Source: Felixounavirus LF110P1. From it: 64,000 nt of DNA. The notes beneath the pieces were generated by a model. That model was not told the DNA's origin. It did no database searches and saw only the letters and a program-made list of their open reading frames with translations. Numbering within the stretch: the stretch's first letter is position 1; every line of letters begins with the position of its first letter. Shown piece after piece: positions 7,446-59,960 of this stretch. The stretch is taken from sequence record OZ035744.1, one strand, 5' to 3'. The position numbers and the translations under genes were made by a program.

Positions 7446-7658
7446 TCAGAGGCCAATACTAATACGTTCACCCTTGAGGACTCCTGTACGGTCTCTTACA
7501 ATCTTACCGTCAACAATAAGGATATGCGCAGACTTTAAAGATTCACTATTAAAACCTTTTACGAACTTACTAGGCATCACCACAATAAGCATCTCTTGAA
7601 TCAACTCTGGAGTGTAGCAGTTGTCGTGAAGTTGTTGGATAACGTCTGCAAGTTTCAT
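7446..7658 (-). CDS. hypothetical protein
   Basis: 70 aa ORF. Confidence 0.35.
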   Translation of the reverse strand: MKLADVIQQLHDNCYTPELIQEMLIVVMPSKFVKGFNSESLKSAHILIVDGKIVRDRTGVLKGERISIGL

Positions 7659-7709
7659 ATAACCTCCTATATCAGATATTGTATAAGGTACTCTTCCATG
7701 AGCACCTTG

Positions 7710-8273
7710 TCAAGATAGTTTTGCAAACTCTCCGTGGAGTTTCACAGCAGCTTCACAGTAAGCTTTATGGGCTTCTTCAGGGGTGTCAAACATACCAAGA
7801 TGATAGTTTTTACCTTGTAAACGAATCATTGCTCTAAATCTTACACCTATCTTCTGCACACCTTTTGGCAACCCAGATAGGGACTTTCTTGACCGATTGC
7901 AAGAGTTTTGTGAAGCTGTACAAACCCTTAAATTCAAGTACCTATTGTCCCAACCATCACCATTCTTATGGTCAACCTGTAAGGTTTTATCAGGCAGGTA
8001 TCCATCCACATATAGTATTGCTAGACGGTTAGCTTGGTAGCCTTTACCATCAAGCAATAACTGAACAGACTTGTGACCGTCTGTGTTTATCCTATAATTT
8101 CCTGCCTTTTTACCTCCAAAACGAGAGTTGAAGTTCTTATTGCCTCGTGATACCGGCTCTCTAAACTTCCAAGTAAAGACCCCTGTTTCGGGGTCGTAGT
8201 CCAATAGCTCCTTAAGACGAATTTCTGTAATCATTTCAACACCATCAATGTACTTCCAACCAGCTCTTACCAA
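7710..8273 (-). CDS. HNH homing endonuclease with AP2-like DNA-binding domain
   Basis: HNH-like core (QVDHKNGDGWDNRYLNLRVCTASQN) plus C-terminal AP2-like segment (GVRFRAMIRLQGKNYHLGMFDTPEEAHKAY); overlaps 3' end of DNA polymerase gene. Confidence 0.6.
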   Translation of the reverse strand: MVRAGWKYIDGVEMITEIRLKELLDYDPETGVFTWKFREPVSRGNKNFNSRFGGKKAGNYRINTDGHKSVQLLLDGKGYQANRLAILYVDGYLPDKTLQVDHKNGDGWDNRYLNLRVCTASQNSCNRSRKSLSGLPKGVQKIGVRFRAMIRLQGKNYHLGMFDTPEEAHKAYCEAAVKLHGEFAKLS

Positions 8274-10944
8274 CCTTACCTGTGCCAGTTACAAGTGTCT
8301 CACTCTTCAAACCTAAATTCTTAGATGCCTGACCATACATCCAGTCAGTTATGGCTTTAACTTCTTGAGTCATACTTTCTGGGCATTCCCAACTGTTTTC
8401 ATCGTGGTATGCCAGCAAAAGCCTAGCACCAATTGCTGGTTTTCGTCCATTTAATTTTGTCAGTCCTTCTTCACATGCTCTTCTACAAGCAAGGTTAATT
8501 GCCTCATTTTGAATCTGAGCCTCCGAACCCATAAGCAAATAATTCAATAACTTATGTGGAGATTTGCACCACAACCAAGCTCCAGCAACTTTTACAAAGC
8601 CCCCTTTAGAGATTGCAGCAGTCTTACCAAATACCTCTTCAAGTGCCTTTTTAGTTGCTTTGTAGTCAGCTTCCAAGTCATCTAGCAGCTTTTTAATTTT
8701 AGGCAAACGAATAAAGTAAGTCTGTTTAGTCAGCGCACCTTCCTGAGTAGTTGCAGCCTTAATCGTCTTAGCAAACTTCTCATCACCTGCACCGAACAGC
8801 AGTGCATAGATACCATTCTTAGCTTTCTTACGACCCTTGCTAATCTCATGAAGAAGATTCTCATCCTGAGTAGCTCGACAAGTCAAGATGTCCTGCTCAT
8901 CGTTCAAGTTAAAGTAAATACTGTTCAGTGTATGTGCATCAGTCCCTGAATAGACAACGTACAGGTCATTCTCAGAGTCATAGCGAAGGTACTTATCAAT
9001 CTCTGGGTTGAGGTACTCATCAAAGTGTTTACAGTAATAGCGTCCATCTTCTTGACGAATGAACTCAATTTCTTCTTTACCTTGCGTTACCGCTTTGGTG
9101 AAGTCTTTATCACCCATAAAGTTACAAAGAAGAACTAGCTGGGCTGAGTTCATATCTACAGAGACAACGTTAGTACCTTCCTCACAAATCCACACTGCCC
9201 TCATTGGTTCCCCATAGACAGCAGCACCAGATGGTACGTTTACAATACCATACTGTGTCATACGTCCAGTTGAAGTACCAAACACCATTGCACCAGCACT
9301 AAGGCGACCATCAGGACGAATCTGGTTCAACCAACCTTTTTCATCATCCTTTGAGTTCTCAATAGTTCTGCGTCGGTGCATCAAAGTGTAGTATTTAGCA
9401 ATCTTCTGTCCAAGCTCACCTTCAATCGTATCGTAAGATGATTCAGTAAGTTTTGGTGAAGTACGGATTAAGCAAGGCTCAAGCAAATCTGTGTACTTCT
9501 TCACAGACCAGTTATGCTCAATGTACTGGACGCCTTCGTGTTCAACATAACTCAAACCACACCGCTCAACCATTTCCTGCCACTTAGGATGCTTTGTAAT
9601 CATCTTTTTATTGTCTTTGAAACGACAAACTTTGACAGGGCGACCATCAGAGTCTTTCTTGTAGTTCCAGTCATCTGGAATCCAACCAACTGATTTCAAG
9701 TAGTCTTTAACAACTGCTACCTGAGTCATACGAGAAACTTCAAACTCAATTGGTGTATATGGTGCATCAATCAAACCTGTGTAGCGACTTGACTCAAGTT
9801 CAAAGTGGTTAACAACGTGGCTGTTATAGTACTTCACAGTTTTGACTGTTTTTACTGGCTTCCAGTCTTTGCATTTCTTGCCAATCTTTGCGTTCAACTC
9901 ATTGCAAATTGCACGAGCATCCTTCATTGCTACAAAGCCTTCCTTGTACTCTTCACCAGTTACAGTGTTGGTTGGTGTATAGCAATTCCTTTTTTCAATG
10001 TTAAAAATCTTTGTAGTTGGCTTACCAAATGGTTTGATTTCGTATGTCTGCATCTCGCCATTACGTACCTGCTGACGATACTTTGTCTTAGGGTACTTGG
10101 TAATTCTTTTCAGTCCATCTGCATGACCAAATGTTTCAACATACTCATTCCAAGCTTTTGCAAACTCTTCTCCAGTGACTTTACCTTTGGTCTTAATAGT
10201 TGGAGGTAGATGTGGTTCAACCTCTGAAGCAAGCTCATTAGTCAACTTGTCAAGTTCCTTTACATGGAACTCCATAAGCTCTTTATCAGCTTTCCAACCA
10301 TTGATAGCTTGTTGACTCATCCAGAAAGATGTTTCTTTAGCTCGCATGTAGGTTTCATAAGTGTCTATGCCACACTTCTTAAGCTTGAGATACTCATTAT
10401 CAAGTGCCCGTTTAGTTTTGGCGTTAATACGGATATCTTCTACAACACGAGTGAAGATTTCTGCATTCCACACACCCCAATGTTCAATCTCTGGTTTACG
10501 AACACCGACACGAGCACCCCATGCAGCCAAACCATGAGCACCTTTATAACCCTTTGGAGTTGGTCTATCCATCCACTGAACACGAGACTGGATAAGAGAA
10601 TCCTGAAAGAAATTACTCCACGGTTTACACTTTGGATTATCAAAGTTCCATAAATCGGGTGCAATGTGATTGAAAACCCACCAGTCATAACCAAGACCAT
10701 TATGAATGCAAAGACGTTTTGCCTTTAACGCAAACTCAATACCTTCACGTAAGCCACCCTTAATGTACTTGGTATACTTGTGACCGAGGATAGGCTCATC
10801 TGTAAAGACCCATACAGGTGGCTCTTCATCGTCAGATTTATAGTCTGCGAAAGCCATTACGTGCACTTTAGTGAACTCAAGGAGTAAACCATCAGTTTCT
10901 GTATCACCAACTAAATGTAAGTTTTTAAAATCTACGTTTTCCAT
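8245..10944 (-). CDS. DNA polymerase, family A, with 3'-5' exonuclease domain
   Basis: exo motif VGDTETDG at N-terminus; motif B-like KNGIYALLFGAG; motif C LLAYHDE; start placed at MENVDF (GAGGGAG RBS) rather than track start 10974. Confidence 0.9.
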   Translation of the reverse strand: MENVDFKNLHLVGDTETDGLLLEFTKVHVMAFADYKSDDEEPPVWVFTDEPILGHKYTKYIKGGLREGIEFALKAKRLCIHNGLGYDWWVFNHIAPDLWNFDNPKCKPWSNFFQDSLIQSRVQWMDRPTPKGYKGAHGLAAWGARVGVRKPEIEHWGVWNAEIFTRVVEDIRINAKTKRALDNEYLKLKKCGIDTYETYMRAKETSFWMSQQAINGWKADKELMEFHVKELDKLTNELASEVEPHLPPTIKTKGKVTGEEFAKAWNEYVETFGHADGLKRITKYPKTKYRQQVRNGEMQTYEIKPFGKPTTKIFNIEKRNCYTPTNTVTGEEYKEGFVAMKDARAICNELNAKIGKKCKDWKPVKTVKTVKYYNSHVVNHFELESSRYTGLIDAPYTPIEFEVSRMTQVAVVKDYLKSVGWIPDDWNYKKDSDGRPVKVCRFKDNKKMITKHPKWQEMVERCGLSYVEHEGVQYIEHNWSVKKYTDLLEPCLIRTSPKLTESSYDTIEGELGQKIAKYYTLMHRRRTIENSKDDEKGWLNQIRPDGRLSAGAMVFGTSTGRMTQYGIVNVPSGAAVYGEPMRAVWICEEGTNVVSVDMNSAQLVLLCNFMGDKDFTKAVTQGKEEIEFIRQEDGRYYCKHFDEYLNPEIDKYLRYDSENDLYVVYSGTDAHTLNSIYFNLNDEQDILTCRATQDENLLHEISKGRKKAKNGIYALLFGAGDEKFAKTIKAATTQEGALTKQTYFIRLPKIKKLLDDLEADYKATKKALEEVFGKTAAISKGGFVKVAGAWLWCKSPHKLLNYLLMGSEAQIQNEAINLACRRACEEGLTKLNGRKPAIGARLLLAYHDENSWECPESMTQEVKAITDWMYGQASKNLGLKSETLVTGTGKVGKSWLEVH

Positions 10945-10995
10945 TTTTACTCCCTCTAAAATCATTAACCTCATACATTACTGCAAAAAATTATA

Positions 10996-11032
10996 AAAAG
11001 CAAGTTGACAATGCACTTGACAAGGTGTTAAT
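10996..11032 (+). promoter_or_regulatory. sigma70-like promoter with tandem TTGACA boxes
   Basis: TTGACAATGCACTTGACAAGGTG-TTAATC; near-identical element recurs at 55813. Confidence 0.45.
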
Positions 11033-11201
11033 CTTTGCGAAGTGGGTTTTTACTTAAAAGGTTACTTAACAGTTTAACTATACAGATACTTTAAATCTCT
11101 TAAAAGATTATTTAATAGCTTTTAAAAAGCTTTAAAGTATAACGTATAGAATACGTTAAGATAAAAGATTAAAACTTAATAGTTACTTAAAAGAGGCTTA
11201 C

Positions 11202-11624
11202 ATGCAGAAAATGTTTGTTCACCCAGACATAGCTGACTTTGTTAGAGCTTTGCAGAAGTTGGAAGAACTTGACATTGCTGCTCAACGGGAATATGCTCAC
11301 CATCACAGGAGAATGGTTGATATACAACATGAAATAGAGTTGTCTGAAAACTATGAAGATGACTTAAAATGCTCTGTATTTGAGCATATGAAAGATGTTG
11401 CTACAGCAAGACGTAAAGCTAAAGACACAGTTGCTTTACTAGATTCTCTTAAAAAGAGGTTGCAAAGTGGTACAGACCTGTGTAATCTAGCGTCACTGAT
11501 TAACGATGTTGAAACTTCTTGGGATAGGCACTATTATCCACGTTCTGAAAAGACACTTGACTTTTCTTCATCAGAAAACTTAAAATGTTCTAGAAAGAAA
11601 CTTAACCAACTGAGAGAGAAATAA
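11202..11624 (+). CDS. hypothetical protein
   Basis: 140 aa ORF, first gene of plus-strand operon. Confidence 0.45.
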   Translation: MQKMFVHPDIADFVRALQKLEELDIAAQREYAHHHRRMVDIQHEIELSENYEDDLKCSVFEHMKDVATARRKAKDTVALLDSLKKRLQSGTDLCNLASLINDVETSWDRHYYPRSEKTLDFSSSENLKCSRKKLNQLREK

Positions 11625-11625
11625 T

Positions 11626-12438
11626 ATGAATATCAATGTGGAACAGATGCTTGAAGAGAAAGGTGTTGATGAAGCATTCTTAATCAATGCCGTAGAAAGC
11701 ATGGCTATGATTCTTCGTGGAAATAACTACACAGAACAGTTTATGCCTGCAAGCTACAACTTACCTGAAGACAAGTCTGATAGTAGTGCTTTTGCAGAGC
11801 AGGTTAATATGATGCTGTGTGACAAAACGCTTGCTTTAGCATCTATCGTTGTAGGTGTCGATGCTCTTGCAGAGTTCATTTTTTATGAGATGCAGAAAAA
11901 TGACTATATTGCCATGACATCTGAAGAAAAAGACTCGCTGCTGCTCTTAGATAATGATGAGCTAGTTGGCCTGTTAATTTCTTCAACGAGTGCTGTTATG
12001 GCTGCTCTTGAGAAGCGTATGAATGAGAAGTTGTCACGGTATGAAAAACTTGATTGGGGCGTAGAAGAATTAAACCCACGAATCAAAGAGATTATCCAGC
12101 AAACCAAAGCTTCTTTGGAAGAAGCTGTGAAAGATGATTATGTAGCTGGCATAGAACCACTACAGGTGAAAGTTGCATTGATGATGCCAGCTATCTCTAC
12201 GATGATGAATATCGTTGCATTAATCCAGCTTTCACAGATGATGGGTACAACCATCGAGTTCATTGAGAGTATGACTGGTGGTGTCAGTATGCAAGCAATC
12301 AATGATGTTTTGGTGAGCATTGGAGCTTCAATCATTGAAGAGAAACTGCGCATTAACTTTGGTGACGATTTTGTGAAGCAAATCGCAGCTATGGCTGAAA
12401 AAGAACACTCACAGATTACCACTGAACAACTGCACTGA
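11626..12438 (+). CDS. hypothetical protein
   Basis: 270 aa ORF. Confidence 0.45.
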   Translation: MNINVEQMLEEKGVDEAFLINAVESMAMILRGNNYTEQFMPASYNLPEDKSDSSAFAEQVNMMLCDKTLALASIVVGVDALAEFIFYEMQKNDYIAMTSEEKDSLLLLDNDELVGLLISSTSAVMAALEKRMNEKLSRYEKLDWGVEELNPRIKEIIQQTKASLEEAVKDDYVAGIEPLQVKVALMMPAISTMMNIVALIQLSQMMGTTIEFIESMTGGVSMQAINDVLVSIGASIIEEKLRINFGDDFVKQIAAMAEKEHSQITTEQLH

Positions 12439-12456
12439 GTTTTTATAAATATTACA

Positions 12457-12481
12457 AGCCTCCTTAGTTGGGGGCTTTTTA
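12457..12481 (+). terminator. rho-independent terminator
   Basis: AGCCTCC-TTAGTT-GGGGGCT hairpin then TTTTT. Confidence 0.45.
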
Positions 12482-12499
12482 GTAATTAAGGGAGATAGA

Positions 12500-13243
12500 A
12501 TGAGTAATATTATCGCATTTACTGGAAAGGCACGCTCTGGAAAAGACACCTCATGTTCTATTGTGAAGAACATCTTAGAGGATGAGTACGGCTACAATGT
12601 TGCTGTAATGGCCTTTGCAGACAACCTTAAAATGTCTGCATCAAAGATATTTGACCTGACTTGGAATGACCTGTATGGTGAAACTAAAGAGACTCCACAG
12701 GTATTTGACTTATCATATCCTGAACTGATGTTTAAAGTTACGGAAGCTATGGAGTTCACCTTCAGAGATGAACGTTACCATATGGACTTCAAGCTTATGT
12801 CAGAGTTAACCGGACGATTAATCATGGAGCTTAAGAAGGTTGCTAAACCTACCCTATTAACACGTCTGGGATTTAGTAAAAAGTATAAATTCTCATCAAG
12901 ACAAATTCAACAGATTTGGGGTACTGAAGTTGTCCGTAAAGTAATGGGCGACAAGTTCTGGTCTAAAGACCTTGAAAAAAGAATGGTTAGATTCCATGAA
13001 ATGTGCTCACTTAGAAATCAATATGGTTTTGTCTTAATCAGTGATTTAAGATTTGACTCTGAAGCTGAATGGCTGAGTAGATTTGCACACCAAACTATTG
13101 AAGTAAAAAGAGACAATGTGGACAAAGTTTCATCACATGTTTCAGAAAATGGGATTTCTACAAAATATGAGCGTGACATTATTCATAATAATGGTACTCT
13201 TGCAGACCTTGAGAACAAGCTAAGAGCCATCATTAAAGTTTAA
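12500..13243 (+). CDS. deoxynucleoside monophosphate kinase
   Basis: N-terminal P-loop IAFTGKARSGKDT resembles T4 gp1 dNMP kinase N-terminus. Confidence 0.65.
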   Translation: MSNIIAFTGKARSGKDTSCSIVKNILEDEYGYNVAVMAFADNLKMSASKIFDLTWNDLYGETKETPQVFDLSYPELMFKVTEAMEFTFRDERYHMDFKLMSELTGRLIMELKKVAKPTLLTRLGFSKKYKFSSRQIQQIWGTEVVRKVMGDKFWSKDLEKRMVRFHEMCSLRNQYGFVLISDLRFDSEAEWLSRFAHQTIEVKRDNVDKVSSHVSENGISTKYERDIIHNNGTLADLENKLRAIIKV

Positions 13244-13251
13244 AAGAGAGA

Positions 13252-13452
13252 ATGAAGATGAGAGTAAAAGACAATTTTAAAGTTATTGACCACCGTTTAG
13301 TGGAACTCTCATCTCTTTCCAATGAGGTAATGATTGAACGTCTTAAGAGAGTTGAATCACGAAGGAAAGAGATTGCAGATGAAATTCATGAACTGGACAA
13401 GATTGAAAATGGATTGAAGGCAGAACTACAACGAAGAGGTGCTAATGTCTAA
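13252..13452 (+). CDS. hypothetical protein
   Basis: 66 aa coiled-coil-like ORF. Confidence 0.4.
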   Translation: MKMRVKDNFKVIDHRLVELSSLSNEVMIERLKRVESRRKEIADEIHELDKIENGLKAELQRRGANV

Positions 13453-15430
13453 AGGTCGTAAATTGAAAGAGGCTGGTCAGTTTGTTGGTCATTGCGCATG
13501 TCCACGTTGTGGTTCATCAGATGCTGGTTCAATCTATCATCATGACGATGATTCTTATTCAATGACTTGCTTTAGTTGTAACAAAGGTTTCCCAGAGTGG
13601 GATTTTGATAAAGGACAAATCGTGAGCACTTATTCTACTGGTTCAGACAATAAAAACCGTACTTTCCGTGGAATGGATTTAGACGATGTAAAAGAAAACC
13701 TAGAAGCAATGGACTTGAAAGATAGGAAGATTCCTGCAAAAGTCCTTGAACGCTTAGGTATCAAGGTTGACATTGACAGTGATGGTGAAATTGACGCGCA
13801 TTTCTATCCAACTTACAAACGTAATGAAGATGGTAAGCTAGAGCACGTTGGCTACCGTGTTCGTCACCGTTACCCAGAAGACCATCCAAAAGAACACCTA
13901 CGAGGTAAGTTAAAAGACTTTTCTGGTGGTGTTGGAGACATTAAAGGTGAACTGGCAATGTTCGGTTCATGGATTGCTCCAGAAGGTGGTAACCGTCTAT
14001 TCATCTGGGAAGGTGAGATGGAATGTGCGACAGCAATCTATATGACTTCTCTTGCGATTAAGGATAAATCTCGTCGTAAGAATTACTGTCACGTATCTGT
14101 TCCATCAGGTGCAAACATCAAGTCTATCAAAGATAACTATCAGTACATTACATCATTTGATGAGATTTACTTGTGCTTTGATAACGATGAAGCAGGTGCT
14201 AAAGCCACTAAAGAGGCTGCTGGTATCCTACCTATTGAGAAGGTTCGTTTATTCCAGTATCCAGAAGGCGTAAAAGACCTTAACGAGTGGTGGACAAAGT
14301 TCTATAAAGAGAAAGACACAGTTCTGGAAGGATTTAAGCAGCGTATCTACAATGCACCTCGTTACTGTCCTGCTGGTATCAAGAACTTTGCAGATGGTTT
14401 TGAGGCAATGAAGAATCGTGGTCAGATTCCATTGATTCCTTTCCCAGAATCTTTCGGAGATTTGAACAGGCTGACTTATGGTGGTTACGGTTTAGGTGAG
14501 ATTACAACTATTGCAGCACCATCTTCAGTAGGTAAGTCAGCTTACACTCGTGAGATGATTTATTCAGCTTGGAAAGAAACTGATTATAATATCGGTGTAA
14601 TTCCTGTAGAAGATACCTATGAAGAGTTGATGGAGATGCTCTGTGCAATCCACCTGAGCAAGCAGATTTCTGAGATTCCTTATGACGAACGTGATTGGGA
14701 TGAATTGAAGAAGGCACACGCAGAACTGTCTAAGGGTCGTCGTATCCACATCGTTGACCATCAAGGGGCAATTGACCAAGATAACTTGCTGGAGTTTGTT
14801 GACTATCTTGTTAACAGCTTAGACTGTAAGATTATTATTCTTGACCCTATTACGTTGGCTCTGTCACGTTCAGATACGGATGAAGAGGAAGTTTTATCTG
14901 AGCTATTGCGTCGTTGCAAACGCTACCAGTATGCACAGGTGAACGTCTGTCACGTTCGTAAGAGTGCAGGTGGTCAGAAGGCTAACTCCGAAGGTGGAGA
15001 TATCTCTGAAGAGGATATTAAAGGTTCTGGTGCGTATTTCCAGATTTCTATGAACAACATTCTATTAATGCGTAACAAGGTTGACCCAGACCCTGTTAAG
15101 AAAAACTTGACAAAAATCAAGTTAACTAAATGCCGTCGTCATGGTAAGTCAACAGGTATTGCTGGTCATACTTGGTACAATCCAGATACAGGACGTCTCA
15201 TTAAAGCCTCTGGTTGTGGAGTTGACATTGATGGTGCAGCAGAAAATATTCGCCAACAGTTTGGTATTGGTGAAGCTGAAGACCATTACGATGACTCTTT
15301 GCCACATTATGAGGATGAAGTGTTTGACCGTGAGACTGGTGAAGTCTATACTGAAGAGCAGCGTCAAAGCTCAACGATTCCACCTGTATTAAGTGAGGAT
15401 GCAGATGACTGCCCGTTCGAAACTGAGTGA
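13445..15430 (+). CDS. primase-helicase (T7 gp4-like)
   Basis: N-terminal zinc ribbon CPRCGSSD...CFSCNKG; Walker A GEITTIAAPSSVGKSAYT; DnaB-like helicase C-terminal half. Confidence 0.85.
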   Translation: MSKGRKLKEAGQFVGHCACPRCGSSDAGSIYHHDDDSYSMTCFSCNKGFPEWDFDKGQIVSTYSTGSDNKNRTFRGMDLDDVKENLEAMDLKDRKIPAKVLERLGIKVDIDSDGEIDAHFYPTYKRNEDGKLEHVGYRVRHRYPEDHPKEHLRGKLKDFSGGVGDIKGELAMFGSWIAPEGGNRLFIWEGEMECATAIYMTSLAIKDKSRRKNYCHVSVPSGANIKSIKDNYQYITSFDEIYLCFDNDEAGAKATKEAAGILPIEKVRLFQYPEGVKDLNEWWTKFYKEKDTVLEGFKQRIYNAPRYCPAGIKNFADGFEAMKNRGQIPLIPFPESFGDLNRLTYGGYGLGEITTIAAPSSVGKSAYTREMIYSAWKETDYNIGVIPVEDTYEELMEMLCAIHLSKQISEIPYDERDWDELKKAHAELSKGRRIHIVDHQGAIDQDNLLEFVDYLVNSLDCKIIILDPITLALSRSDTDEEEVLSELLRRCKRYQYAQVNVCHVRKSAGGQKANSEGGDISEEDIKGSGAYFQISMNNILLMRNKVDPDPVKKNLTKIKLTKCRRHGKSTGIAGHTWYNPDTGRLIKASGCGVDIDGAAENIRQQFGIGEAEDHYDDSLPHYEDEVFDRETGEVYTEEQRQSSTIPPVLSEDADDCPFETE

Positions 15431-15682
15431 TAGCTATAAAAGAGAGGGGTTCACACCCTTATTTGAAGAAAAAAGTTTAAATAAATTTCATGAAGAGTGT
15501 TTGACAAAGATTGATAGGTTCTATAGAATGCTCCACATGAAATGCGATGGAGAAGTTGAAATAGAACAGCAGTTCCATCAAAGTATGATTACAGTCATCA
15601 TTACACTGCCTCAGCATAATATTGGTTGGCTGTTTATAATGAAAGAAAATGTGTTTGAATATCAAGTATATCGGAGAATATC

Positions 15683-15832
15683 ATGAAACACTCTAAAGCA
15701 TTTGAAAAAGTTTTTGGGGATTCCTTAAAAGCCACTGCTGGAAAACCAGCAAAATACTATGAAGAAAAACGTGTAAGAACTGGAAAAACTGCACGTAAAG
15801 CAGCTTCTAAAGATAAGCACAACTTCCAGTAA
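15683..15832 (+). CDS. small basic protein (hypothetical)
   Basis: 49 aa ORF with GGAGA RBS; not in the 60 aa track. Confidence 0.3.
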   Translation: MKHSKAFEKVFGDSLKATAGKPAKYYEEKRVRTGKTARKAASKDKHNFQ

Positions 15833-15904
15833 TTAGTATTTGACAATAGAGTATCAACAAATTAGAATTGGTACTCTTCATAAATTGAGATAGAGGTTTA
15901 AATA

Positions 15905-16762
15905 ATGTCTAAAGTTGTTAAAATGAAAGCTCCGGTAGAGAAGTACAACGGTACTGAACGTCAAACTCTGCGTTACCTGCTGAAAGATGTCTGGTTTTAT
16001 TACCTGAACACTTCACCACGTCCGGGAAAAGGTAAGTCTATTGATAAGAAATTCCCAGGCAAGGACTGTAACTACAGCGTATCAATTCTGGCAGAAGACG
16101 GTAACAAACTGTTTAAAGAGTTTACTAAGTCTAAGAAAAACCCAGAGGGTTGGGATAAAGTTACCACTGAAGCAGTTGATGCAGACGACTTCGAAGAGAA
16201 GTTTGGTTGTAAACCACCTTTTGAAGCAGACACTTACTACATCTTGAAAGTAAGTCGTGCAGCAGCTTATAAAGATGGTGCTGTATGGACAGCTAAACAG
16301 TCATTCCCTGTAATGCTGATTGAAGAAGTAAACGGTAAACGTGTAGCTGTTAAACAGCCGATGAAGAAAATCAAAGCTCAAGCATCTGATAAGCATGAAG
16401 ATGATAAGAACTATGATGTAATTCATCCAGATATTGCAGTTGGTAACGGTTCTTTTGGTAGTGTGATTCTTTCTACTCACTTCTACACTTTTGAGAACAA
16501 TGTTCTGACTAAACCTATTCAGGAACAGTTTATCATTGATACTCTTGTACCTTACACTGGTGGTAACGGTGCTAATGGTGAACCTGAACTGGATGAAGAT
16601 GAACTGGCTATGCTTGGTCTTGATGGTGTCGAAGATAACGGTGAAATCACTGAAGAAGACGCAACAGACCATAAATCTTCGAATGATTCTGATGATGGTG
16701 ATGATGAAGATTTGCCAGACCCAGATGACGAAGAGGATGAAGACTTCGATACAGAAGATTAA
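15905..16762 (+). CDS. single-stranded DNA-binding protein (candidate)
   Basis: 285 aa with strongly acidic C-terminal tail (DSDDGDDEDLPDPDDEEDEDFDTED), position between helicase and exonuclease. Confidence 0.5.
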   Translation: MSKVVKMKAPVEKYNGTERQTLRYLLKDVWFYYLNTSPRPGKGKSIDKKFPGKDCNYSVSILAEDGNKLFKEFTKSKKNPEGWDKVTTEAVDADDFEEKFGCKPPFEADTYYILKVSRAAAYKDGAVWTAKQSFPVMLIEEVNGKRVAVKQPMKKIKAQASDKHEDDKNYDVIHPDIAVGNGSFGSVILSTHFYTFENNVLTKPIQEQFIIDTLVPYTGGNGANGEPELDEDELAMLGLDGVEDNGEITEEDATDHKSSNDSDDGDDEDLPDPDDEEDEDFDTED

Positions 16763-16779
16763 TCTCTAAAGTTACTTTA

Positions 16780-16808
16780 AAGCCCTGTACTCCGTATGGG
16801 GCTTTTTC
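16780..16808 (+). terminator. rho-independent terminator
   Basis: AGCCC...GGGGCT hairpin then TTTTT. Confidence 0.45.
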
Positions 16809-16823
16809 ATATGGAGAGCCATA

Positions 16824-17864
16824 ATGGAGAAGTACACATTAACAAAACTTCCCGATTCAGTTACACATGTTTTTATTGACTCTGACAGTATTGCCTATAA
16901 AGGTGCTTGTGTAGTTGAGAAATCAAAATATAAATACGTCAATAAACTCACAGCAGAAGAATCTGAGCCATTTGATAATGCGAAAGATGCTGCAAGATGG
17001 TTAGCAGACCAGAGAATCCTTGTGGAAGAACTTGGCCTGACATTTGATGAAGATGAATGGGAAAGACAGACTTGGAAAGAAGCTAAGAGTGAAAAAGAAG
17101 CTATCATGGCTACTCAACAGGTGCTTCAGGAATGGCTTAAGATTGTTGGTAAAGAAAGAACTTGGGTAGGCTATTTAACAGAGAAAGGTGTGCATAAACA
17201 TAAAGACATTAAAGGTCTTGAGCACCAATATCAAGGTAACCGTAAAGATGCTGTCACACCAACACACTTAGTTGCTTGTCGTGAATACCTTTTATCCAGA
17301 CCAGAGTTCAAGCTCTTAAAGGGGGGCTTCGAAGCCGATTCAATCGTAATTGCTAAAGCTGAAAAGATGGGTAAGAAGGCTGCTCTTATGAGTATTGATA
17401 AAGACCTTCGACAAGCTGAAGGAACTTATTGTATTGATATGACTTATGAAAAATCACCACTAATCTTTATTGCTGATAATAATGTTGGTGATATCTGGGA
17501 TTGTCCTATCAAATCAAAACCAAAAGCTGCAAAAACAGTTGGTGTAGGTTTTAAGTTCTTATGCTATCAGGCTGTTGCTGGAGATAATGCAGACAACTAC
17601 TTCGGACTTAAAGGTGCTGGTAAAGTAGCTGTGATGAATGCTTTAGATGGTAAAGAGACCTACAAAGAGTGTCTTGATGCTATCTATGAACTCTATGCTA
17701 AAAAAGACTCTTATACCTATGTGTCATGGGATGGACAGACTGTTACAAAGACACCGTTAGAGTTAATGGAACAGCATTTCTGGATAGCATATCAAGAGAG
17801 AAATCCAAAAGACAATTTCTCTTTCAAGAAATATAATTGGGAGCCGTGTATGAATGAAGATTAA
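16824..17864 (+). CDS. 5'-3' exonuclease / flap endonuclease-like protein
   Basis: H3TH-like motif AGDNADNYFGLKGAGKVAV; acidic clusters; placement in replication module. Confidence 0.55.
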   Translation: MEKYTLTKLPDSVTHVFIDSDSIAYKGACVVEKSKYKYVNKLTAEESEPFDNAKDAARWLADQRILVEELGLTFDEDEWERQTWKEAKSEKEAIMATQQVLQEWLKIVGKERTWVGYLTEKGVHKHKDIKGLEHQYQGNRKDAVTPTHLVACREYLLSRPEFKLLKGGFEADSIVIAKAEKMGKKAALMSIDKDLRQAEGTYCIDMTYEKSPLIFIADNNVGDIWDCPIKSKPKAAKTVGVGFKFLCYQAVAGDNADNYFGLKGAGKVAVMNALDGKETYKECLDAIYELYAKKDSYTYVSWDGQTVTKTPLELMEQHFWIAYQERNPKDNFSFKKYNWEPCMNED

Positions 17865-18351
17865 AGGATTTGGCAATTGCCCTACCTACGGTCATTGGGT
17901 ATCTTTATGTGGGGAAGTTGACCCCACTAAACATTTTGGCTTTGTCTATTTAGTACACTGTAAGAAGACTGGACAATATTATATAGGAAAGAAACAGCTT
18001 AACAGTGTGACCAAAAGAAAAGTTGCTGGGAAGACTCGGAAGAAGGTAGTCACTAAGGAAAGTGATTGGATGACTTACGAAACCTCTTCTGAGTATATTA
18101 AAAAAGATATTGAGAGCTTTGGAAAAGAATTTTTTGACTTTTACATTATTCAGACCTACTACACAAAAGGTGGCCTAGTCTATGGTGAAGCAAACCTTCA
18201 ACATAAATTCGATGTAATGACAAAAAGGATTGACTCGAAGCTCAGACTCTTCTACAATGCCAATATTGCAGCAATTAAGTTTATTACTAAAGAAACTTAT
18301 GAAGATGCTGAAAAAAGAATCCATAAGGTAATGAAAGCAAATTGTGCTTGA
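17854..18351 (+). CDS. GIY-YIG-like endonuclease (candidate)
   Basis: GFVYLVHCKKTGQYYIGKK resembles the GIY-(x10)-YIG motif. Confidence 0.4.
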   Translation: MKIKGFGNCPTYGHWVSLCGEVDPTKHFGFVYLVHCKKTGQYYIGKKQLNSVTKRKVAGKTRKKVVTKESDWMTYETSSEYIKKDIESFGKEFFDFYIIQTYYTKGGLVYGEANLQHKFDVMTKRIDSKLRLFYNANIAAIKFITKETYEDAEKRIHKVMKANCA

Positions 18352-24139: not shown

Positions 24140-26284
24140 ATGAACAAAGTACAGATTATTAAAAAGAATGGCTCACTTGAAGAACCTGATATCAAAAAAG
24201 TTTTAGCAGCAGTCACAAAGTCAGCTAACAGAGTTGGTTATAAAGAGCTTCCACCAGATGTTACTCAAGCTCTTGAGTCAGCATTTATGAGGATTCTGGT
24301 AAAGTCCACTAAGCAGAATAATTTGCTAATTTCGGTAAATGATATTCACAGTATTGTTGAGGGTGCTTTGGCAGAAGTCAATCACGAGATTTATGAGTCT
24401 TACTCAACATATAGAAATTACCGTAAAGAGGTTGCTCAAAATTGGGATGAACTCTACCAGAAGACTAAAGATACACTCTTCTTAGGTGACCGAGAAAACG
24501 CTAATTTTGACAGCAGTTTAATTTCTACAAAAGGTTCAATTATTCGTGGTTATCTGACTAAAGAAATCTTTAAACAGTACCATTTAACACCAGAGGAACT
24601 TGAAGCCATTGAAAAAGGGTTTATCTACATCCATGATTTAAGAGACCTAATTTTTGGTGGTATCAACTGTTGCCTGTTTGACATTGGTAAAGTCCTGAAA
24701 GGTGGCTTTGAAATGTCTGGCATCGAATATTGTGAACCGAAGTCTGTACTGTCAGCCTTACAGGTTATTGGTGATGTAGTTCTTTCAGCAACTGCACAGC
24801 AATTTGGTGGCTTTACTTTAGCAGAGATTGATAAGGTACTTGTACCGTATGCTAAGAAGTCTCTACACTATCATGCTGAGAAAGCAGCATCTTATGGTAT
24901 TCCTAAAGAACATTACCACAATTATGTCATGGAGCAGCTACAGATTGAACTGACTCAGGGTTTCCAGTCACTTGAAATGAAACTAAACACTGTACCTTGT
25001 AGTCGTGGGGATTTTGCATTCACAACTTTGACATTCGGGTTACTTGACTCAGATATGTCCAATGAAGATAACCGACTGCAATACATGATTGCAAGTACTC
25101 TCCTAGATGTTCGTATGAATGGACAAGGTAAGAGCAAGAAGCCTGTTGTATTCCCTAAACTGGTTTATATTTATGACCAGAAGAGACACGATGAGAATAT
25201 CTGTCAAGGCCACCTGTACAGTAAAGCTATTGAGTGTTGCTCTAAAGCAATGTATCCAGACTTCTTAAGTGTATCTGGTCATGGTGCTGTAGCAGAGGCT
25301 TTTGAGCGTTCTGGTAAGGTTATTTCACCAATGGGTTGCAGAGCTTTCTTGTCTCCATATCTTAATGAGGATGGGGAAGAGTTCTACGTTGGTCGTGCTA
25401 ACATTGGTGCTGTATCTTTGAACTTACCAATGATTTACCAGTATTCTAAAGAGAATGGATTAGACTTCTGGACAGAACTTGATAAATATCTCGAAATGAT
25501 TCGTAGCTTCCATAAGAAACGCTACGAAATGATTGCTAATATGCCAGCAAGTTCTAACCCTCTTGCATTCACACAAGGTGGTCTGTACAAAGGAACTAAG
25601 AAACCTACTGACAAGGTTGGTTGGGATATTGTGAAGTCCTTCACAGCTTCTTTTGGTGTTACTGCGCTTGATGAGTTGTCTGTTCTTGCTGAAGGTAAAC
25701 GACTTCATGAAGTTGGAAGCTATAGTTTTGCATATGATGTTCTGGCATACATCAACATGAAAACCGAAGAGTTTAAAAATGAAGATGGCTTCTTATATGC
25801 CGTCTATGGTACTCCAGCAGAATCACTATGTGGGACTCAGCTAAAACAGTTCAGAGATATGTTTGGGGTTATCAAAGGTGTTTCCGATAAGGAATACTTT
25901 ACAAACAGTTTCCATATGAATGTTGCAGCAGACATCTCGCCATTTGAGAAGCAGGACTTAGAAGAGCCATTCTTCCATATCTGTAGAGGCGGTAGAATCC
26001 AGTATGTAAGAGTAGCTAACCCAGAAAACTTAACAGCACTTAAAAGTTGTATTACAAGAGGGATGTTGAAAGGTTTCTATCAGGGGCTTAACTTTGACTT
26101 AGCAATCTGTGAACATTGTGGTAACAGACCAAAGGCTGATGTTGAAGAATGTGAGGTTTGCCATTCACATGATATCTCTGTGATTAACAGGGTGTGTGGG
26201 TATCTTGGATGGACTAAGATTAAAGGTGAATCCCGAATGAACGATGCAAAAATCGCTGAGATTCGTGATAGAGTCTCTATGTAA
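24140..26284 (+). CDS. nrdD: anaerobic ribonucleotide reductase (class III)
   Basis: 714 aa; N-terminal ATP-cone-like segment; C-terminal Zn/glycyl-radical region CEHCGN...CEVCHSHD...RVCGYLGW. Confidence 0.9.
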   Translation: MNKVQIIKKNGSLEEPDIKKVLAAVTKSANRVGYKELPPDVTQALESAFMRILVKSTKQNNLLISVNDIHSIVEGALAEVNHEIYESYSTYRNYRKEVAQNWDELYQKTKDTLFLGDRENANFDSSLISTKGSIIRGYLTKEIFKQYHLTPEELEAIEKGFIYIHDLRDLIFGGINCCLFDIGKVLKGGFEMSGIEYCEPKSVLSALQVIGDVVLSATAQQFGGFTLAEIDKVLVPYAKKSLHYHAEKAASYGIPKEHYHNYVMEQLQIELTQGFQSLEMKLNTVPCSRGDFAFTTLTFGLLDSDMSNEDNRLQYMIASTLLDVRMNGQGKSKKPVVFPKLVYIYDQKRHDENICQGHLYSKAIECCSKAMYPDFLSVSGHGAVAEAFERSGKVISPMGCRAFLSPYLNEDGEEFYVGRANIGAVSLNLPMIYQYSKENGLDFWTELDKYLEMIRSFHKKRYEMIANMPASSNPLAFTQGGLYKGTKKPTDKVGWDIVKSFTASFGVTALDELSVLAEGKRLHEVGSYSFAYDVLAYINMKTEEFKNEDGFLYAVYGTPAESLCGTQLKQFRDMFGVIKGVSDKEYFTNSFHMNVAADISPFEKQDLEEPFFHICRGGRIQYVRVANPENLTALKSCITRGMLKGFYQGLNFDLAICEHCGNRPKADVEECEVCHSHDISVINRVCGYLGWTKIKGESRMNDAKIAEIRDRVSM

Positions 26285-28763: not shown

Positions 28764-29279
28764 ATGTATCTGTCAAACCTAAAACGTTCTGCTGCAATGT
28801 CAGTGCTAAGACTCAGCTTTGAGGAACGTCAAGAGTTCATTGACTCCCACCAATACGACCCCTCAAACTCCAATCACATGATTCTCTGGAATCGTGAAAG
28901 TACTCGTGAAAGAGCACTATTCCGTTATTACCCACACTACACTATAGATAACCTGTATGAATTGTTTGTTGTGAAGAACACCATTACAGTGCTCAATAAA
29001 CTTTGCAGATACACAGGCAGTCAATCCTTCACATTAGGCCATCACAAACCTGTTACAAAGGGTGGTGAGCATCACTGTGCAAACTGGTTTATTCAGACTA
29101 AACTTGATAACCAGAAGCAAGGGGATAACCTTCTAAGCACCCCTAAGATGACCTACGAAGAGCAAGAGAAATATATCAAAAATAATATGCCAGATGTGCT
29201 TGACAACCACTATACAGATTTGGCAATATCTCTCCTGTTGAAGTTCGAGACAGTTTATAGGGCAACTTACAATGGCTAA
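28764..29279 (+). CDS. HNH-like endonuclease (candidate)
   Basis: GHHKPVTKGGEHHCANW...N segment loosely resembles an HNH motif. Confidence 0.3.
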   Translation: MYLSNLKRSAAMSVLRLSFEERQEFIDSHQYDPSNSNHMILWNRESTRERALFRYYPHYTIDNLYELFVVKNTITVLNKLCRYTGSQSFTLGHHKPVTKGGEHHCANWFIQTKLDNQKQGDNLLSTPKMTYEEQEKYIKNNMPDVLDNHYTDLAISLLLKFETVYRATYNG

Positions 29280-57999: not shown

Positions 58000-58076
58000 C
58001 TCTGTTTAGCTCAGCTTGGTAGAGCGTTCCGTTTGGGGCGGTAAGGCCGGAGGTTCAAGTCCTCCAACAGAGACCA
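58000..58076 (+). tRNA. tRNA-Pro (anticodon TGG), CCA encoded
   Basis: cloverleaf by hand: acceptor CTCTGTT/AACAGAG, T-arm GGAGG-TTCAAGT-CCTCC, anticodon loop TTTGGGG. Confidence 0.6.
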
Positions 58077-58083
58077 AATTAAT

Positions 58084-58158
58084 GTTCCAGTAGACAAAAT
58101 GGTAAAGTCACCACTCTTTCAAAGTGGATATCTGAGGGTTCAAATCCCTTCTGGAACG
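58084..58158 (+). tRNA. tRNA-Glu (anticodon TTC)
   Basis: acceptor GTTCCAG/CTGGAAC, anticodon stem CCACT/AGTGG, loop CTTTCAA, T-loop GGTTCAAATCC. Confidence 0.6.
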
Positions 58159-58165
58159 CCAGTTT

Positions 58166-58240
58166 TGACAGAAGACCAATTACAGCAAACTTAATCTACT
58201 CATCTGACACGAAATCGGACAAAGAAGATATTTGGTCTGG
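58166..58240 (+). repeat. inter-tRNA repeat copy 1 (CAGAAGACC-N3-TACAGCAA ... GGTCTGG)
   Basis: family of at least four copies between tRNAs (58166, 58335, 58725, 58811); possible fifth at about 61115. Confidence 0.5.
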
Positions 58241-58251
58241 TCATTGAGAAT

Positions 58252-58325
58252 TGCGGGTATAGAGAAAGGGCGTCTCACATGTCTCATTAGCATGGTATCG
58301 GCAGGTTCGACTCCTGCACCCGCCT
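58252..58325 (+). tRNA. tRNA-Met (anticodon CAT), initiator-like 1:72 mismatch
   Basis: T-arm GCAGG-TTCGACT-CCTGC, anticodon loop CTCATTA, D-stem GAGA/TCTC. Confidence 0.6.
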
Positions 58326-58334
58326 CCAATTTTG

Positions 58335-58392
58335 CAGAAGACCGTATTCAGCAACAAAATACTTTTTGCGGATAAAAGAAAAAACACGGTCT
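58335..58392 (+). repeat. inter-tRNA repeat copy 2
   Basis: GCAGAAGACCGTATTCAGCAA...CGGTCTGG. Confidence 0.5.
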
Positions 58393-58405
58393 GGCAATGT
58401 ATTAA

Positions 58406-58479
58406 GGTTAGGAAGCACATAAGGTATGTGCGGTCGCCTGTTAAGCGAATGGCACAGGGTTCGAATCCCTGACTAACCG
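58406..58479 (+). tRNA. tRNA-Asn (anticodon GTT)
   Basis: T-loop GGGTTCGAATCCC, anticodon loop CTGTTAA, acceptor GGTTAGG/ACTAACC. Confidence 0.6.
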
Positions 58480-58491
58480 CCAAATTTAAAT

Positions 58492-58576
58492 GTGTCGTTA
58501 TCCCGTAGATGGTAGCGGTGGGGACTGTAAATCCCTTGTCATTGAGACTCGGTAGGTTCGACTCCTACACGACACA
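58492..58576 (+). tRNA. tRNA-Tyr (anticodon GTA), long variable arm
   Basis: 85 nt; anticodon loop CTGTAAA; T-arm GTAGG-TTCGACT-CCTAC; acceptor GTGTCGT/ACGACAC. Confidence 0.6.
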
Positions 58577-58584
58577 CCAATAAA

Positions 58585-58659
58585 GGTTATGTAGTTTAAT
58601 TTGGTTAAAATACTCCCCTGTCACGGGAGATGATGAGGGTTCAAATCCCTTCGTAACCG
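58585..58659 (+). tRNA. tRNA-Asp (anticodon GTC)
   Basis: anticodon stem CTCCC/GGGAG, loop CTGTCAC; T-loop GGGTTCAAATCCC. Confidence 0.6.
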
Positions 58660-58724
58660 CCAATTTTGAGAGGGCTATTTAGCCCCTCCCTTAAAGAGTT
58701 CTTACGAGTATTCTTTAAAGGAGC

Positions 58725-58797
58725 AGAAGACCAAATACAGCAAGAATGTATGAAATTTCAAGCCAATTTAATTTTGAAAATTTAAAACTTGGTCTGG
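58725..58797 (+). repeat. inter-tRNA repeat copy 3
   Basis: CAGAAGACCAAATACAGCAA...TTGGTCTGG. Confidence 0.5.
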
Positions 58798-58810
58798 CTC
58801 AACAAATTTA

Positions 58811-58942
58811 CAGAAGACCGTTTACAGCAAAACTTAAACAATCTATTTCTCCGGTAAAGAAAAGGCGAAGGTTCGATTCCTTCACTCGGCAGATGTCGAG
58901 TTGGTGTAATGGTAGCACTTAAGATGATAAACAACGGTCTGG
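58811..58942 (+). repeat. inter-tRNA repeat copy 4 (extended, contains tRNA-like T-arm and D-arm fragments)
   Basis: CAGAAGACCGTTTACAGCAA ... GCGAAGGTTCGATTCCTTC ... GTTGGTGTAATGGTAGCAC ... CGGTCTGG. Confidence 0.45.
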
Positions 58943-58943
58943 T

Positions 58944-59086
58944 AATTATCTTTGTAGATAAGTTATTAAGCTTACCTGTGAGTATGCGACCACAAAGGGT
59001 GAAAGGGTAAATTCTAGATTTAAACCCAACAAGGCACATCGCTACAGACCTTAAGCAAGTCTGGGTAGCTTATCTACAAAGATAAT
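58944..59086 (+). ncRNA. candidate structured RNA: 17-bp perfect inverted repeat enclosing about 110 nt
   Basis: TTATCTTTGTAGATAAG (58944) pairs with CTTATCTACAAAGATAA (59069); no ORF; sits between tRNAs. Confidence 0.3.
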
Positions 59087-59091
59087 TTAAT

Positions 59092-59165
59092 GGAAGTGTA
59101 GCAGAATGGTGATGCGGCAGACTTTTAATCTGACAGGCGATGGGTTCGAATCCCTCCACTTCTAC
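59092..59165 (+). tRNA. tRNA-Lys (anticodon TTT)
   Basis: acceptor GGAAGTG/CACTTCT, loop CTTTTAA, T-loop GGGTTCGAATCCC; paralogue of tRNA at 60757. Confidence 0.55.
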
Positions 59166-59172
59166 CAATATG

Positions 59173-59246
59173 GTTCAGTCGCAGATAAGGTAATGCAGGG
59201 GTTTCATAAGCCCTATGAATGTGGGTTCGATTCCCATCTGAACCTC
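59173..59246 (+). tRNA. tRNA-Met or Ile2 (anticodon CAT)
   Basis: acceptor GGTTCAG/CTGAACC (perfect), loop TTCATAA, T-loop GGGTTCGATTCCC. Confidence 0.55.
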
Positions 59247-59251
59247 CAATT

Positions 59252-59323
59252 GTGGGTTAGCATAAATGGTAATGCAAACGGCTGATAACCGTTAGAAGAG
59301 GGTTCGATACCCTCACCTACAAC
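59252..59323 (+). tRNA. tRNA-Ile (anticodon GAT)
   Basis: anticodon stem AACGG/CCGTT, loop CTGATAA; T-arm GAGGG-TTCGATA-CCCTC. Confidence 0.6.
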
Positions 59324-59341
59324 CAATTTCAATAAAGTTGT

Positions 59342-59370
59342 TGACATTGAGATGTGACTACTTTATAGTA
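59342..59370 (+). promoter_or_regulatory. sigma70-like promoter inside tRNA cluster
   Basis: TTGACA - 17 nt - TATAGT. Confidence 0.5.
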
Positions 59371-59661
59371 GATAAAATAATTCATAATATGTATAATTCA
59401 AACACCAATACATGAGCGTTAGACGTAACACAATGTGGGGAAATTTGTTGTACATATTCTGAATAGTTTTCGTTGCGTAGCGTCTATTTTGCAAATTTAA
59501 AATAAATGCAAACGACAATGTTTTTCTGGCAGTAGCTTGATAGGCTAAACACCAGTGAGGTCTTCCAATCCCTCATCAAAGAATTTGGCGTACTAGCCCA
59601 CGGTATGATTAATAAAGTGGGCATCTTTAAGGGCTTTCTAAGAGAGTCTTTAAAGATTAAT

Positions 59662-59735
59662 GCACCCTTAGTTCAATTGGATAGAGCAACGGTCTTCTAA
59701 ATCGTTAGTTACAGGTTCGAATCCTGTAGGGTGTA
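59662..59735 (+). tRNA. tRNA-Arg (anticodon TCT)
   Basis: acceptor GCACCCT/AGGGTGT, D-arm GTTC...GAGC, loop CTTCTAA, T-loop AGGTTCGAATCCT. Confidence 0.6.
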
Positions 59736-59880
59736 CCAATTAGTTAGCAGATTACTTAGACGACCTTAGCGGGTCTTCCTGTAGGGAGGTGGTCTGTATC
59801 TCATGTTTTCCAGAACATGTAAATAATCTGAGAAGGGGCTTTACAGTGTTGAGATAATACGGTAAGCTTCGAATTATAGT

Positions 59881-59960
59881 ATGGGACGATGTTAAGACTC
59901 TAAGGCATGAGCAACGGCTTCCAACACCGTTTCAAAGGGGTTCAACTCCTCCGTCCCATG
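59881..59960 (+). tRNA. tRNA, isotype uncertain (possibly Trp, anticodon CCA), atypical extended D region
   Basis: perfect acceptor ATGGGAC/GTCCCAT, T-loop GGGTTCAACTCC, CCA encoded; D-arm does not fold canonically by hand. Confidence 0.4.

Follow-up and report, generated by a model that had tools for sequence, protein, structure and literature searches.

The stretch of DNA considered here (hereafter the window) is 64 kb (64,000 nucleotides, nt) of Felixounavirus LF110P1 (OZ035744.1). The interval examined, positions 7710–18351, is the replication module and holds two nuclease genes, one of the HNH-AP2 type after the DNA polymerase gene and one of the GIY-YIG type after an exonuclease gene. 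An earlier note on this DNA had taken both, together with a weaker HNH candidate at 28764, as free-standing homing endonucleases next to replication genes and as a mark of recombination hotspots. A query of 12 kb around the interval has matches in 275 phage records, 214 of which cover at least 80% of the query with 90%–97% nucleotide identity. Almost all of them belong to Felixounavirus, the Felix O1-like myoviruses of Escherichia, Salmonella, and Shigella, or else to other Ounavirinae. On the minus strand of the interval are a ligase gene, small open reading frames (ORFs), the HNH gene, and the gene for a family A polymerase. On the plus strand occur, in this order, two unknown genes and then genes for a deoxynucleoside monophosphate (dNMP) kinase, a T7-type primase-helicase, a 285-amino-acid (aa) protein with an acidic tail, a FEN-type 5′–3′ exonuclease, the GIY-YIG protein, and a MazG-like protein. 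The features are as follows.

7710..8234, minus strand: free-standing HNH-AP2 homing endonuclease gene, allele "A"; likely coding sequence of 174 aa from ATG 8234 to the stop TGA 7712–7710 (domains, start choice).
7710..8273, minus strand: mechanical HNH ORF of 187 aa, out to TTG 8273.
7710..7815, minus strand: 3′ end of the HNH gene, common to four otherwise dissimilar alleles at ∼88%–97% nucleotide identity (nucleotide matches and allele alignment).
7731..7838, minus strand: putative AP2-like DNA-binding domain, residues 146–181 (Pfam AP2 below cutoff; AP2/ERF domains in PDB).
7902..8036, minus strand: HNH_3 catalytic core VDHKNGDGWDNRYLNLRVCTASQN, residues 80–124 of the 187-aa ORF (Pfam HNH_3).
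7719..8243: insertion of ∼525 nt relative to empty-site relatives, edges ambiguous by a few nucleotides (junction alignment with L004, L018, L020, L022, and L024).
8245..10974, minus strand: family A DNA polymerase gene, 909 aa, uninterrupted (domain and PHROG matches).
8245..8475, minus strand: last ∼230 nt of the polymerase gene, candidate gene-conversion tract (allele block, sharp breakpoint).
8476..9225, minus strand: wider mosaic zone of the 3′ third of the polymerase gene, including an empty intron site (identity profiles).
16824..17864, plus strand: FEN-type 5′–3′ exonuclease gene, phrog_107 (domain and PHROG matches).
17850..17864, plus strand: exonuclease/GIY-YIG junction, unoccupied in the window (locus comparison).
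17854..18351, plus strand: resident, domain-only SegE-type GIY-YIG nuclease gene, 165 aa (Pfam, distribution, selection).
28764..29279, plus strand: conserved gene of 171 aa, phrog_3500, with an HNH-like motif (PHROG and motif).

The 187-aa ORF matches HNH_3 of Pfam (E = 7.5e-12, 45.1 bits for a cutoff of 24.8) and phrog_99, "HNH endonuclease" (E = 1.5e-58). The core VDHKNGDGWDNRYLNLRVCTASQN is in register with VDHKDGNKDNNLSTNLRWVTQKIN of I-HmuI (PDB 1U3E, E = 1.5e-4) at the D-H pair, the metal-ligand Asn, and the C-terminal Asn, and these D-H…N…N positions are conserved across all HNH alleles found at the polymerase site (allele protein alignment). The C-terminal part is likely an AP2 domain, with a match under the curated threshold (E = 7.6e-5, 23.4 bits, under the cutoff of 33.3). 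Against plant AP2/ERF domains of the PDB, it gives E values of 0.02–0.4 (0.02–0.04 with ERF096 and WRI1). The gene had been described as overlapping the 3′ end of the polymerase gene; the ORF and the domain call stand, but the 29-nt overlap arises only with the first TTG (8273) as start. The alignment of the HNH alleles of relatives starts near ATG 8234, 10 nt past the polymerase stop, and the same 10-nt spacing between polymerase stop and HNH start is found in the BASEL annotation of Bas63. Because the allele alignments and the Bas63 annotation favor ATG 8234, the overlap is probably an artifact of ORF calling. Compared with other copies of allele A, the ORF is intact and without stop codons, with a ratio of nonsynonymous to synonymous substitution rates (dN/dS) of 0.09–0.24; the gene appears therefore to be maintained. 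About 40 nt into the coding sequence, the minus strand holds a perfect 6-bp GC-rich hairpin, GACCCCGAAACAGGGGTC (8178–8195). It may be incidental and not regulatory, since its letters encode the conserved DPETGV motif.

The comparison covers 31 IMG/VR loci fetched around polymerase homologs and two GenBank loci (cited with L numbers). At the site that follows the polymerase gene, allele A is present in four of these loci, other HNH-AP2 alleles (B, C, or D) in about 15, and the site is empty in 12. Copies of allele A have 85%–97% nucleotide identity; alleles B, C, and D are 39%–53% identical to it. The gene is missing from about one-third of the close relatives, and others hold one of three non-orthologous alleles. 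In GenBank, allele A is found over at least 80% of its length in 26 phage records. The shared 3′ end of the gene, or more of it, is found in 142, of which about 116 match the last 63–107 nt alone. The four alleles have the same last 25 residues (C-terminus TPEEAHKAYCEAA[VI]KLHGEFAKLS) and the last ∼70–105 nt in common.

In the empty-site genomes, the polymerase stop is followed within ∼7 nt by a conserved block, TTGACAAGGTGCTCATGG…, upstream of the next gene. The ∼525 extra nucleotides of the window lie exactly between the polymerase stop and this block, with the HNH stop codon inside the TTGACA of the block. A sigma-70 promoter at that TTGACA, overlapping the HNH stop codon, was considered and rejected: no such site came out of the promoter scan for that strand, and a −10 box at the proper spacing is missing. 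Many relatives contain an extra segment of ∼200 nt with a 69-aa ORF (MSHRGRTHAAMMKG…) between the HNH gene and a 70-aa gene (e.g., L016 13320–13523 and L019 14095–14304). The window does not have it (site 7655–7660), a further small indel of this variable zone. With hidden Markov models made from all HNH alleles and from the GIY-YIG family, no further HNH or GIY-YIG copies were found in the window.

The polymerase gene itself is mosaic at its 3′ end. Nucleotides 1–1750 are 93%–100% identical to the window across the Felixounavirus loci (nucleotide identity profile). Behind breakpoints at nt ∼2500 or ∼1750, the identity goes down to 61%–85%. In the empty-site loci L004, L005, L007, L018, L024, and L025, it is ∼73%–85% past a sharp breakpoint at polymerase nt ∼2500 (window ∼8475); in a second group of relatives, it is 75%–80% from nt ∼1750 on (window ∼9225). 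The mosaic sequence adjoining the HNH gene is 230–900 nt long and sharp-edged. The allele block 8245..8475 is common only to the window, L002, L003, L006, L016, and L033, and is ∼25%–30% diverged from the empty-site relatives; this block would be a gene-conversion tract. Between nt 2420 and 2700 (the last 280 nt), there are at least seven allele classes at a threshold of 90%, and the 5′ 1750 nt form a single class. The HNH alleles are shuffled against the polymerase 3′ allele classes. Over its last 110 residues, the polymerase protein keeps ∼90% identity, and motif C (YHDE) is conserved (in-frame C-terminal alignment). With so little change in the protein, the alleles seem to be old, divergent sequences swapped by recombination and not products of decay. 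Such a mosaic is the pattern that repeated homing with co-conversion would produce.

Other mobile elements occur in relatives at sites that are not occupied in the window. Insertions split the polymerase gene within motif B, between KNGIYA and LLFGAG, in L019–L023 and L032. The interruption of L032 (12111–12394) is a group I intron without ORF (Rfam Intron_gpI, 62 bits). In L019–L023, the insertion at motif B is ∼800 nt long, and in the copy of L019 (12171–12978) a 160-aa ORF is found that has an EndoVII/HNH-like motif. The equivalent site of the window (∼8798–8804) is empty, and a search with Rfam over the whole window gave no group I intron and only tRNAs. The nrdD gene of Bas63 (MZ501086) is annotated in two joined parts, which are separated by a gene for a "putative homing endonuclease" (an intron). 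In the window, nrdD (24140..26284) is one uninterrupted ORF of 714 aa, with the Bas63 intron site unoccupied.

At the exonuclease/GIY-YIG junction, 13 of the 31 loci (phage ekra included; L002 11201–11758) have a different HNH-AP2 gene, ∼40% identical to that of the window, between the exonuclease and GIY-YIG genes. In many of these HNH-bearing loci, identity is 73%–87% over the final ∼550 nt of the exonuclease gene and, in some, 77%–79% over the first ∼100 nt of the GIY-YIG gene. L032 has the same diverged exonuclease tract without the junction HNH gene. Judged from these loci, the junction is a recombination hotspot in relatives, via a different HNH gene absent from the window. The hotspots expected at the two sites are therefore present at the polymerase 3′ end and, in the clade, at the junction as well, but the latter goes with a gene that is not found here.

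The second nuclease gene of the interval shows other trends. Its 165-aa product matches SegE_GIY-YIG of Pfam (PF19835; E = 9.4e-28, 97.4 bits for a cutoff of 25). The ATG is 11 nt inside the exonuclease gene, with a GGGAG Shine–Dalgarno sequence upstream; the overlap described in the earlier note is thus confirmed and suggests translational coupling. Close relatives were counted through this gene: all 216 megablast matches, in 216 GenBank phage records, are full length, with 81%–99.8% nucleotide identity. With the protein as query, tblastn finds 296 records at 60% or more amino acid identity, compared with the 275 records matching the replication region. The homologs are 86% identical in Suspvirus/Mooglevirus-like phages and 62% identical in Erwinia phages. 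Wherever the region is covered (32 loci, among them those of Erwinia phages), the gene comes directly after the exonuclease gene (apart from the inserted HNH gene where present). Within Felixounavirus, the GIY-YIG gene has a dN/dS of 0.023; the polymerase is at 0.018 and the primase-helicase at 0.016, and the values of the exonuclease (0.07) and the dNMP kinase (0.11) are higher. The amino acid identity to Erwinia phages is 62% for GIY-YIG, 57% for the polymerase, 54% for the exonuclease, 39% for MazG, and 28% for the dNMP kinase.

Ten positions (G29, Y32, Y43, G45, K47, W72, Y75, S78, E112, and N135) are invariant in an alignment of 40 sequences and invariant or nearly so among 160 aligned homologs. 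Since all ten are retained in the protein of the window, it is probably active. The Pfam match extends over residues 21–138 and the family matches over ∼11–160 of the 165 aa, which leaves no room for a second domain; no separate DNA-binding domain was recognized with Pfam and the family matches. Sequence and profile searches of the PDB gave nothing significant. The AlphaFold model from the single sequence has a predicted local distance difference test (pLDDT) of 42, and the model from 12 sequences is only partly confident. Both catalytic domains of the interval thus score above their Pfam cutoffs (AP2 below) and, in the alignments, both proteins retain their catalytic residues. The presence across relatives separates them: the HNH gene is sporadic, but the GIY-YIG gene is universally present and syntenic.

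The gene at 28764, outside the interval, does exist as an ORF and is still a weak HNH candidate: Pfam gives no HNH match at E ≤ 0.1, no HNH protein came up in a profile search of the PDB, and the match to phrog_2214, "HNH endonuclease," is weak (E = 2.4e-4). The protein and its homologs, which go down to 46%–47% identity with one in a Yersinia phage, have the invariant motif LGHHxPxxxGGxHHxxNWxIQxxxDNQ, and an HNH-like fold is possible. The idea of a sporadic element does not hold, as 203 of the 207 matching phage records contain the gene at full length. Because its distribution is not sporadic, we consider on these comparisons that it is not a homing element. A likeness of the N-terminus (LSFEERQEFIDSHQYDPSNSNHMIL, residues 12–56, window 28764–28930) to staphylococcal protein A was also noticed; the weak matches are summed over repeats, with E ≥ 1.8 for each stretch, and are probably due to chance.

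The wider GIY-YIG family is large. An exhaustive search without profiles finds 1359 cluster representatives at E ≤ 1e-3. Among the best 150, about half are 125–200 aa long (domain only) and half are 225–390 aa long with a C-terminal extension. The domain-only form occurs in ∼400 records of T4-like cyanophages, often under the name "NAD synthetase" (T4-GC 213 in P-SSM2), and also in Stenotrophomonas phages. In the roseophage DSS3_PM1 (Naomviridae), a homolog with 42% identity overlaps the end of a 5′–3′ exonuclease gene. With an alignment of 11 sequences, 30 dereplicated viral loci with homologs of 39%–51% identity were found in environmental data. In 12 of 29 of them, the next gene upstream, in the same orientation, codes for an exonuclease, ten with a Cas4 domain (phrog_1990) and two of FEN type (phrog_107); in 17 of 30, an exonuclease is at most three genes away. 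A gene for a gp2.5-like single-stranded DNA-binding protein (SSB) is common upstream of the GIY-YIG gene, and a metallophosphoesterase gene downstream. Cas4-domain and FEN-type exonucleases are non-homologous families, and their occurrence in one neighboring position is the best support for a functional link between the GIY-YIG nuclease and 5′–3′ resection. The order in the window (285-aa acidic-tail protein, exonuclease, GIY-YIG) follows the same pattern. The 285-aa protein (phrog_3877, window 15905–16762) is without Pfam match, has a strongly acidic C-terminal tail (…DDEEDEDFDTED), and its gene, directly upstream of the exonuclease gene, is in the position of the gp2.5-like SSB genes of the environmental loci; by analogy it may be the SSB of the phage. 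In the curated genome of Bas63, no other endonuclease or resolvase is listed, and nothing relevant was found in the literature searched on a characterized function of this GIY-YIG subfamily.

Taken together, these comparisons point to two kinds of nuclease in the interval, an active, selfish, and mobile free-standing HNH-AP2 homing endonuclease and a fixed resident GIY-YIG nuclease, with the 28764 gene conserved and not homing. We consider this reading probable, with good confidence. In a mixed infection, the HNH enzyme would nick or cut the polymerase 3′ region of a genome without the HNH gene, and recombinational repair would then copy the gene, with a variable length of the polymerase gene, into the recipient genome. 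The ∼100-nt 3′ stretch common to all HNH alleles could serve as the downstream homology arm in allele replacement. The GIY-YIG protein is best taken as a replication-module nuclease that is inherited vertically and consists of the catalytic domain only; it is probably co-translated with the FEN-type exonuclease. It is read as resident because it is universal, in the same position, under strong purifying selection, with its invariant residues kept and with a recurrent placement after exonuclease genes. At a lower level of confidence and by analogy, we infer that it is the endonuclease partner of the 5′–3′ exonuclease, for example in the breakdown of host DNA or the processing of branched intermediates of replication and recombination, much as endonuclease I (gp3) of T7 does next to the exonuclease gp6. 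A broader proposal is tentative, and we regard it as possible but doubtful: the large domain-only SegE-like family would be a housekeeping endonuclease partner of FEN- or Cas4-type exonucleases in T7-type replication modules (in the order SSB/5′–3′ exonuclease/GIY-YIG) for host-DNA breakdown or debranching, a domesticated relative of homing endonucleases in the niche of T7 endonuclease I.

Several observations weigh against these readings. The HNH and polymerase 3′ alleles are not strictly linked (L003 and L006 have the polymerase allele of the window with HNH allele C), and the history would therefore be one of many recombination events and not of a single one. The C-terminal extensions found in about half of the wider GIY-YIG family (the 225–390-aa form) are as in true Seg endonucleases. 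In the cyanophage (P-SSM2) and Menderavirus (Moby) GIY-YIG loci examined, there is no adjoining exonuclease gene. The role proposed after T7 gp3 is tentative and comes from the gene neighborhood. In EC6 (NC_027369; L022 2152–2644), a frameshift breaks the GIY-YIG gene in two, and each piece is annotated as an "NAD synthetase" gene; this isolate may be able to do without the gene, or its sequence may hold an error. Finally, the universal presence of the gene may also be due to a homing element swept to fixation.

The last point leads to the alternative that survives best, that of a former homing endonuclease fixed by such a sweep and kept as a weapon against co-infecting phages, as in the marker or partial exclusion by T4 Seg proteins. 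The protein does belong to a SegE-type family, with intact catalytic residues under strong selection, and the wider family includes two-domain Seg-like proteins; further, the domestication by phages of a homing-type nuclease has a reported precedent in the ICP1 chimeric nuclease (PMC8263062). However, without a recognizable DNA-binding domain, it is hard to see what would make the nuclease specific, the recurrence of exonuclease and SSB neighbors in very different phages points to DNA metabolism, and the conservation equals that of core replication proteins. We hold this alternative to be unlikely.

The reading of the earlier note, in which the HNH-AP2 and GIY-YIG genes are both free-standing homing endonucleases currently mobile by intron-less homing, is quite improbable. 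Both proteins have bona fide catalytic domains of the homing-endonuclease type, some GenBank records call the gene "GIY-YIG homing endonuclease," and the exonuclease 3′ end with the first 100 nt of the GIY-YIG gene is mosaic in some relatives. Yet this mosaic tracks the inserted HNH gene (or the scar of L032) and not the presence or absence of the GIY-YIG gene, which is full length and syntenic in every relative examined, with a dN/dS of 0.023 and a product without DNA-binding domain. Homing beside a replication gene thus holds for the HNH gene, with its sporadic occurrence, allele swaps, precise insertion, and polymerase mosaic, and is mistaken for the GIY-YIG gene, which is universal, syntenic, under tight selection, and devoid of a DNA-binding domain.

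Some phage HNH proteins serve terminases, and the HNH gene is under purifying selection, so that it could have a housekeeping task for the phage (e.g., as a cofactor of packaging or replication) instead of being selfish; but about one-third of near-identical phages are without it and others have non-orthologous alleles, it is not near the terminase gene, and its dN/dS is 4–10 times that of the neighboring core genes, all of which makes this very improbable. That the GIY-YIG ORF is an inactive relic, for which the frameshifted copy in EC6 could speak, is hardly credible with all family-invariant residues kept, a dN/dS of 0.023, and 62% identity across genera.

Two observations are apart from these genes. 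The window has a cluster of 24 tRNA genes (58000–63582), typical of Felix O1-like phages. The records GU169904 (Staphylococcus phage SA1) and MG065664 (Campylobacter phage A132) contain Felixounavirus sequence 92%–94% identical to the window and are probably chimeric or mislabeled deposits.

The results leave the current understanding of homing endonucleases unchanged. What is added here is the census of HNH alleles, the exact junction, and the map of polymerase 3′ breakpoints, with, as a modest lead, the recasting of the GIY-YIG gene as a resident, exonuclease-linked nuclease. For annotation, this gene and hundreds of cyanophage homologs appear to be misnamed "NAD synthetase," "homing endonuclease," or "baseplate hub assembly protein," and the evidence is in favor of a conserved replication-module nuclease. 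At the polymerase 3′ end, the genus offers a clear natural case in which several mobile elements compete for the same essential gene: motif B is the site of a group I intron, and four HNH alleles can replace each other past the stop codon. The sharp gene-conversion tracts will mislead polymerase-based phylogeny and typing of these therapeutic or biocontrol phages.

The HNH part of the picture is already known. The original Felix O1 genome has six HNH homing endonuclease genes and, in that isolate, no introns (PMC3185647), and comparative work on Felixounavirus places homing endonucleases among the variable genes (PMC8300805). In ekra, warpig, LMP33, and Bas63, such genes carry the annotation "HNH endonuclease" or "putative homing endonuclease," and the allele of the window itself is annotated in several GenBank records. 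The HNH gene of the window belongs to the same genus, the same phrog_99 family, and the same post-polymerase locus as the free-standing HNH homing endonucleases of Felix O1 type, without essential difference. In the BASEL collection, homing-endonuclease infestation and gene conversion are described in large coliphages (PMC8594841). The abrupt local drops of identity beside homing endonuclease genes in those coliphages are like those found here at the polymerase and exonuclease 3′ ends; there, the effect is regarded as a disturbance of phylogeny, and the loci considered here are not mapped. With I-HmuI of the Bacillus phage SPO1 (PDB 1U3E), the HNH protein of the window shares an HNH_3-type motif and the tie to a phage DNA polymerase gene. 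I-HmuI is a nicking enzyme encoded within a group I intron, with a different C-terminal DNA-binding module, whereas the gene of the window is free-standing, with an AP2-like end.

For the GIY-YIG protein, the comparisons are with T4 and T7. SegE, SegF, and SegG of T4 are free-standing GIY-YIG homing endonucleases, sporadic among T-even phages, with an extra DNA-binding region, and known for intron-less homing and marker exclusion. The protein of the window matches the Pfam model of the SegE catalytic domain; unlike the Seg proteins, it consists of the catalytic domain only, is universal in the subfamily, and is under constraint like that of a core gene. Endonuclease II (DenA) of T4 is a GIY-YIG enzyme, and endonuclease I (gp3) of T7 acts with the exonuclease gp6; both are small endonucleases that do not home. 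No sequence match to DenA or T7 gp3 was found in the PDB sequence and profile searches, and the analogy comes from the gene neighborhood. Like these two enzymes, the GIY-YIG protein of the window is a small single-domain nuclease in an early or replication cluster, and its context is T7-like, with a FEN exonuclease akin to gp6, a T7-type primase-helicase, and a family A polymerase.

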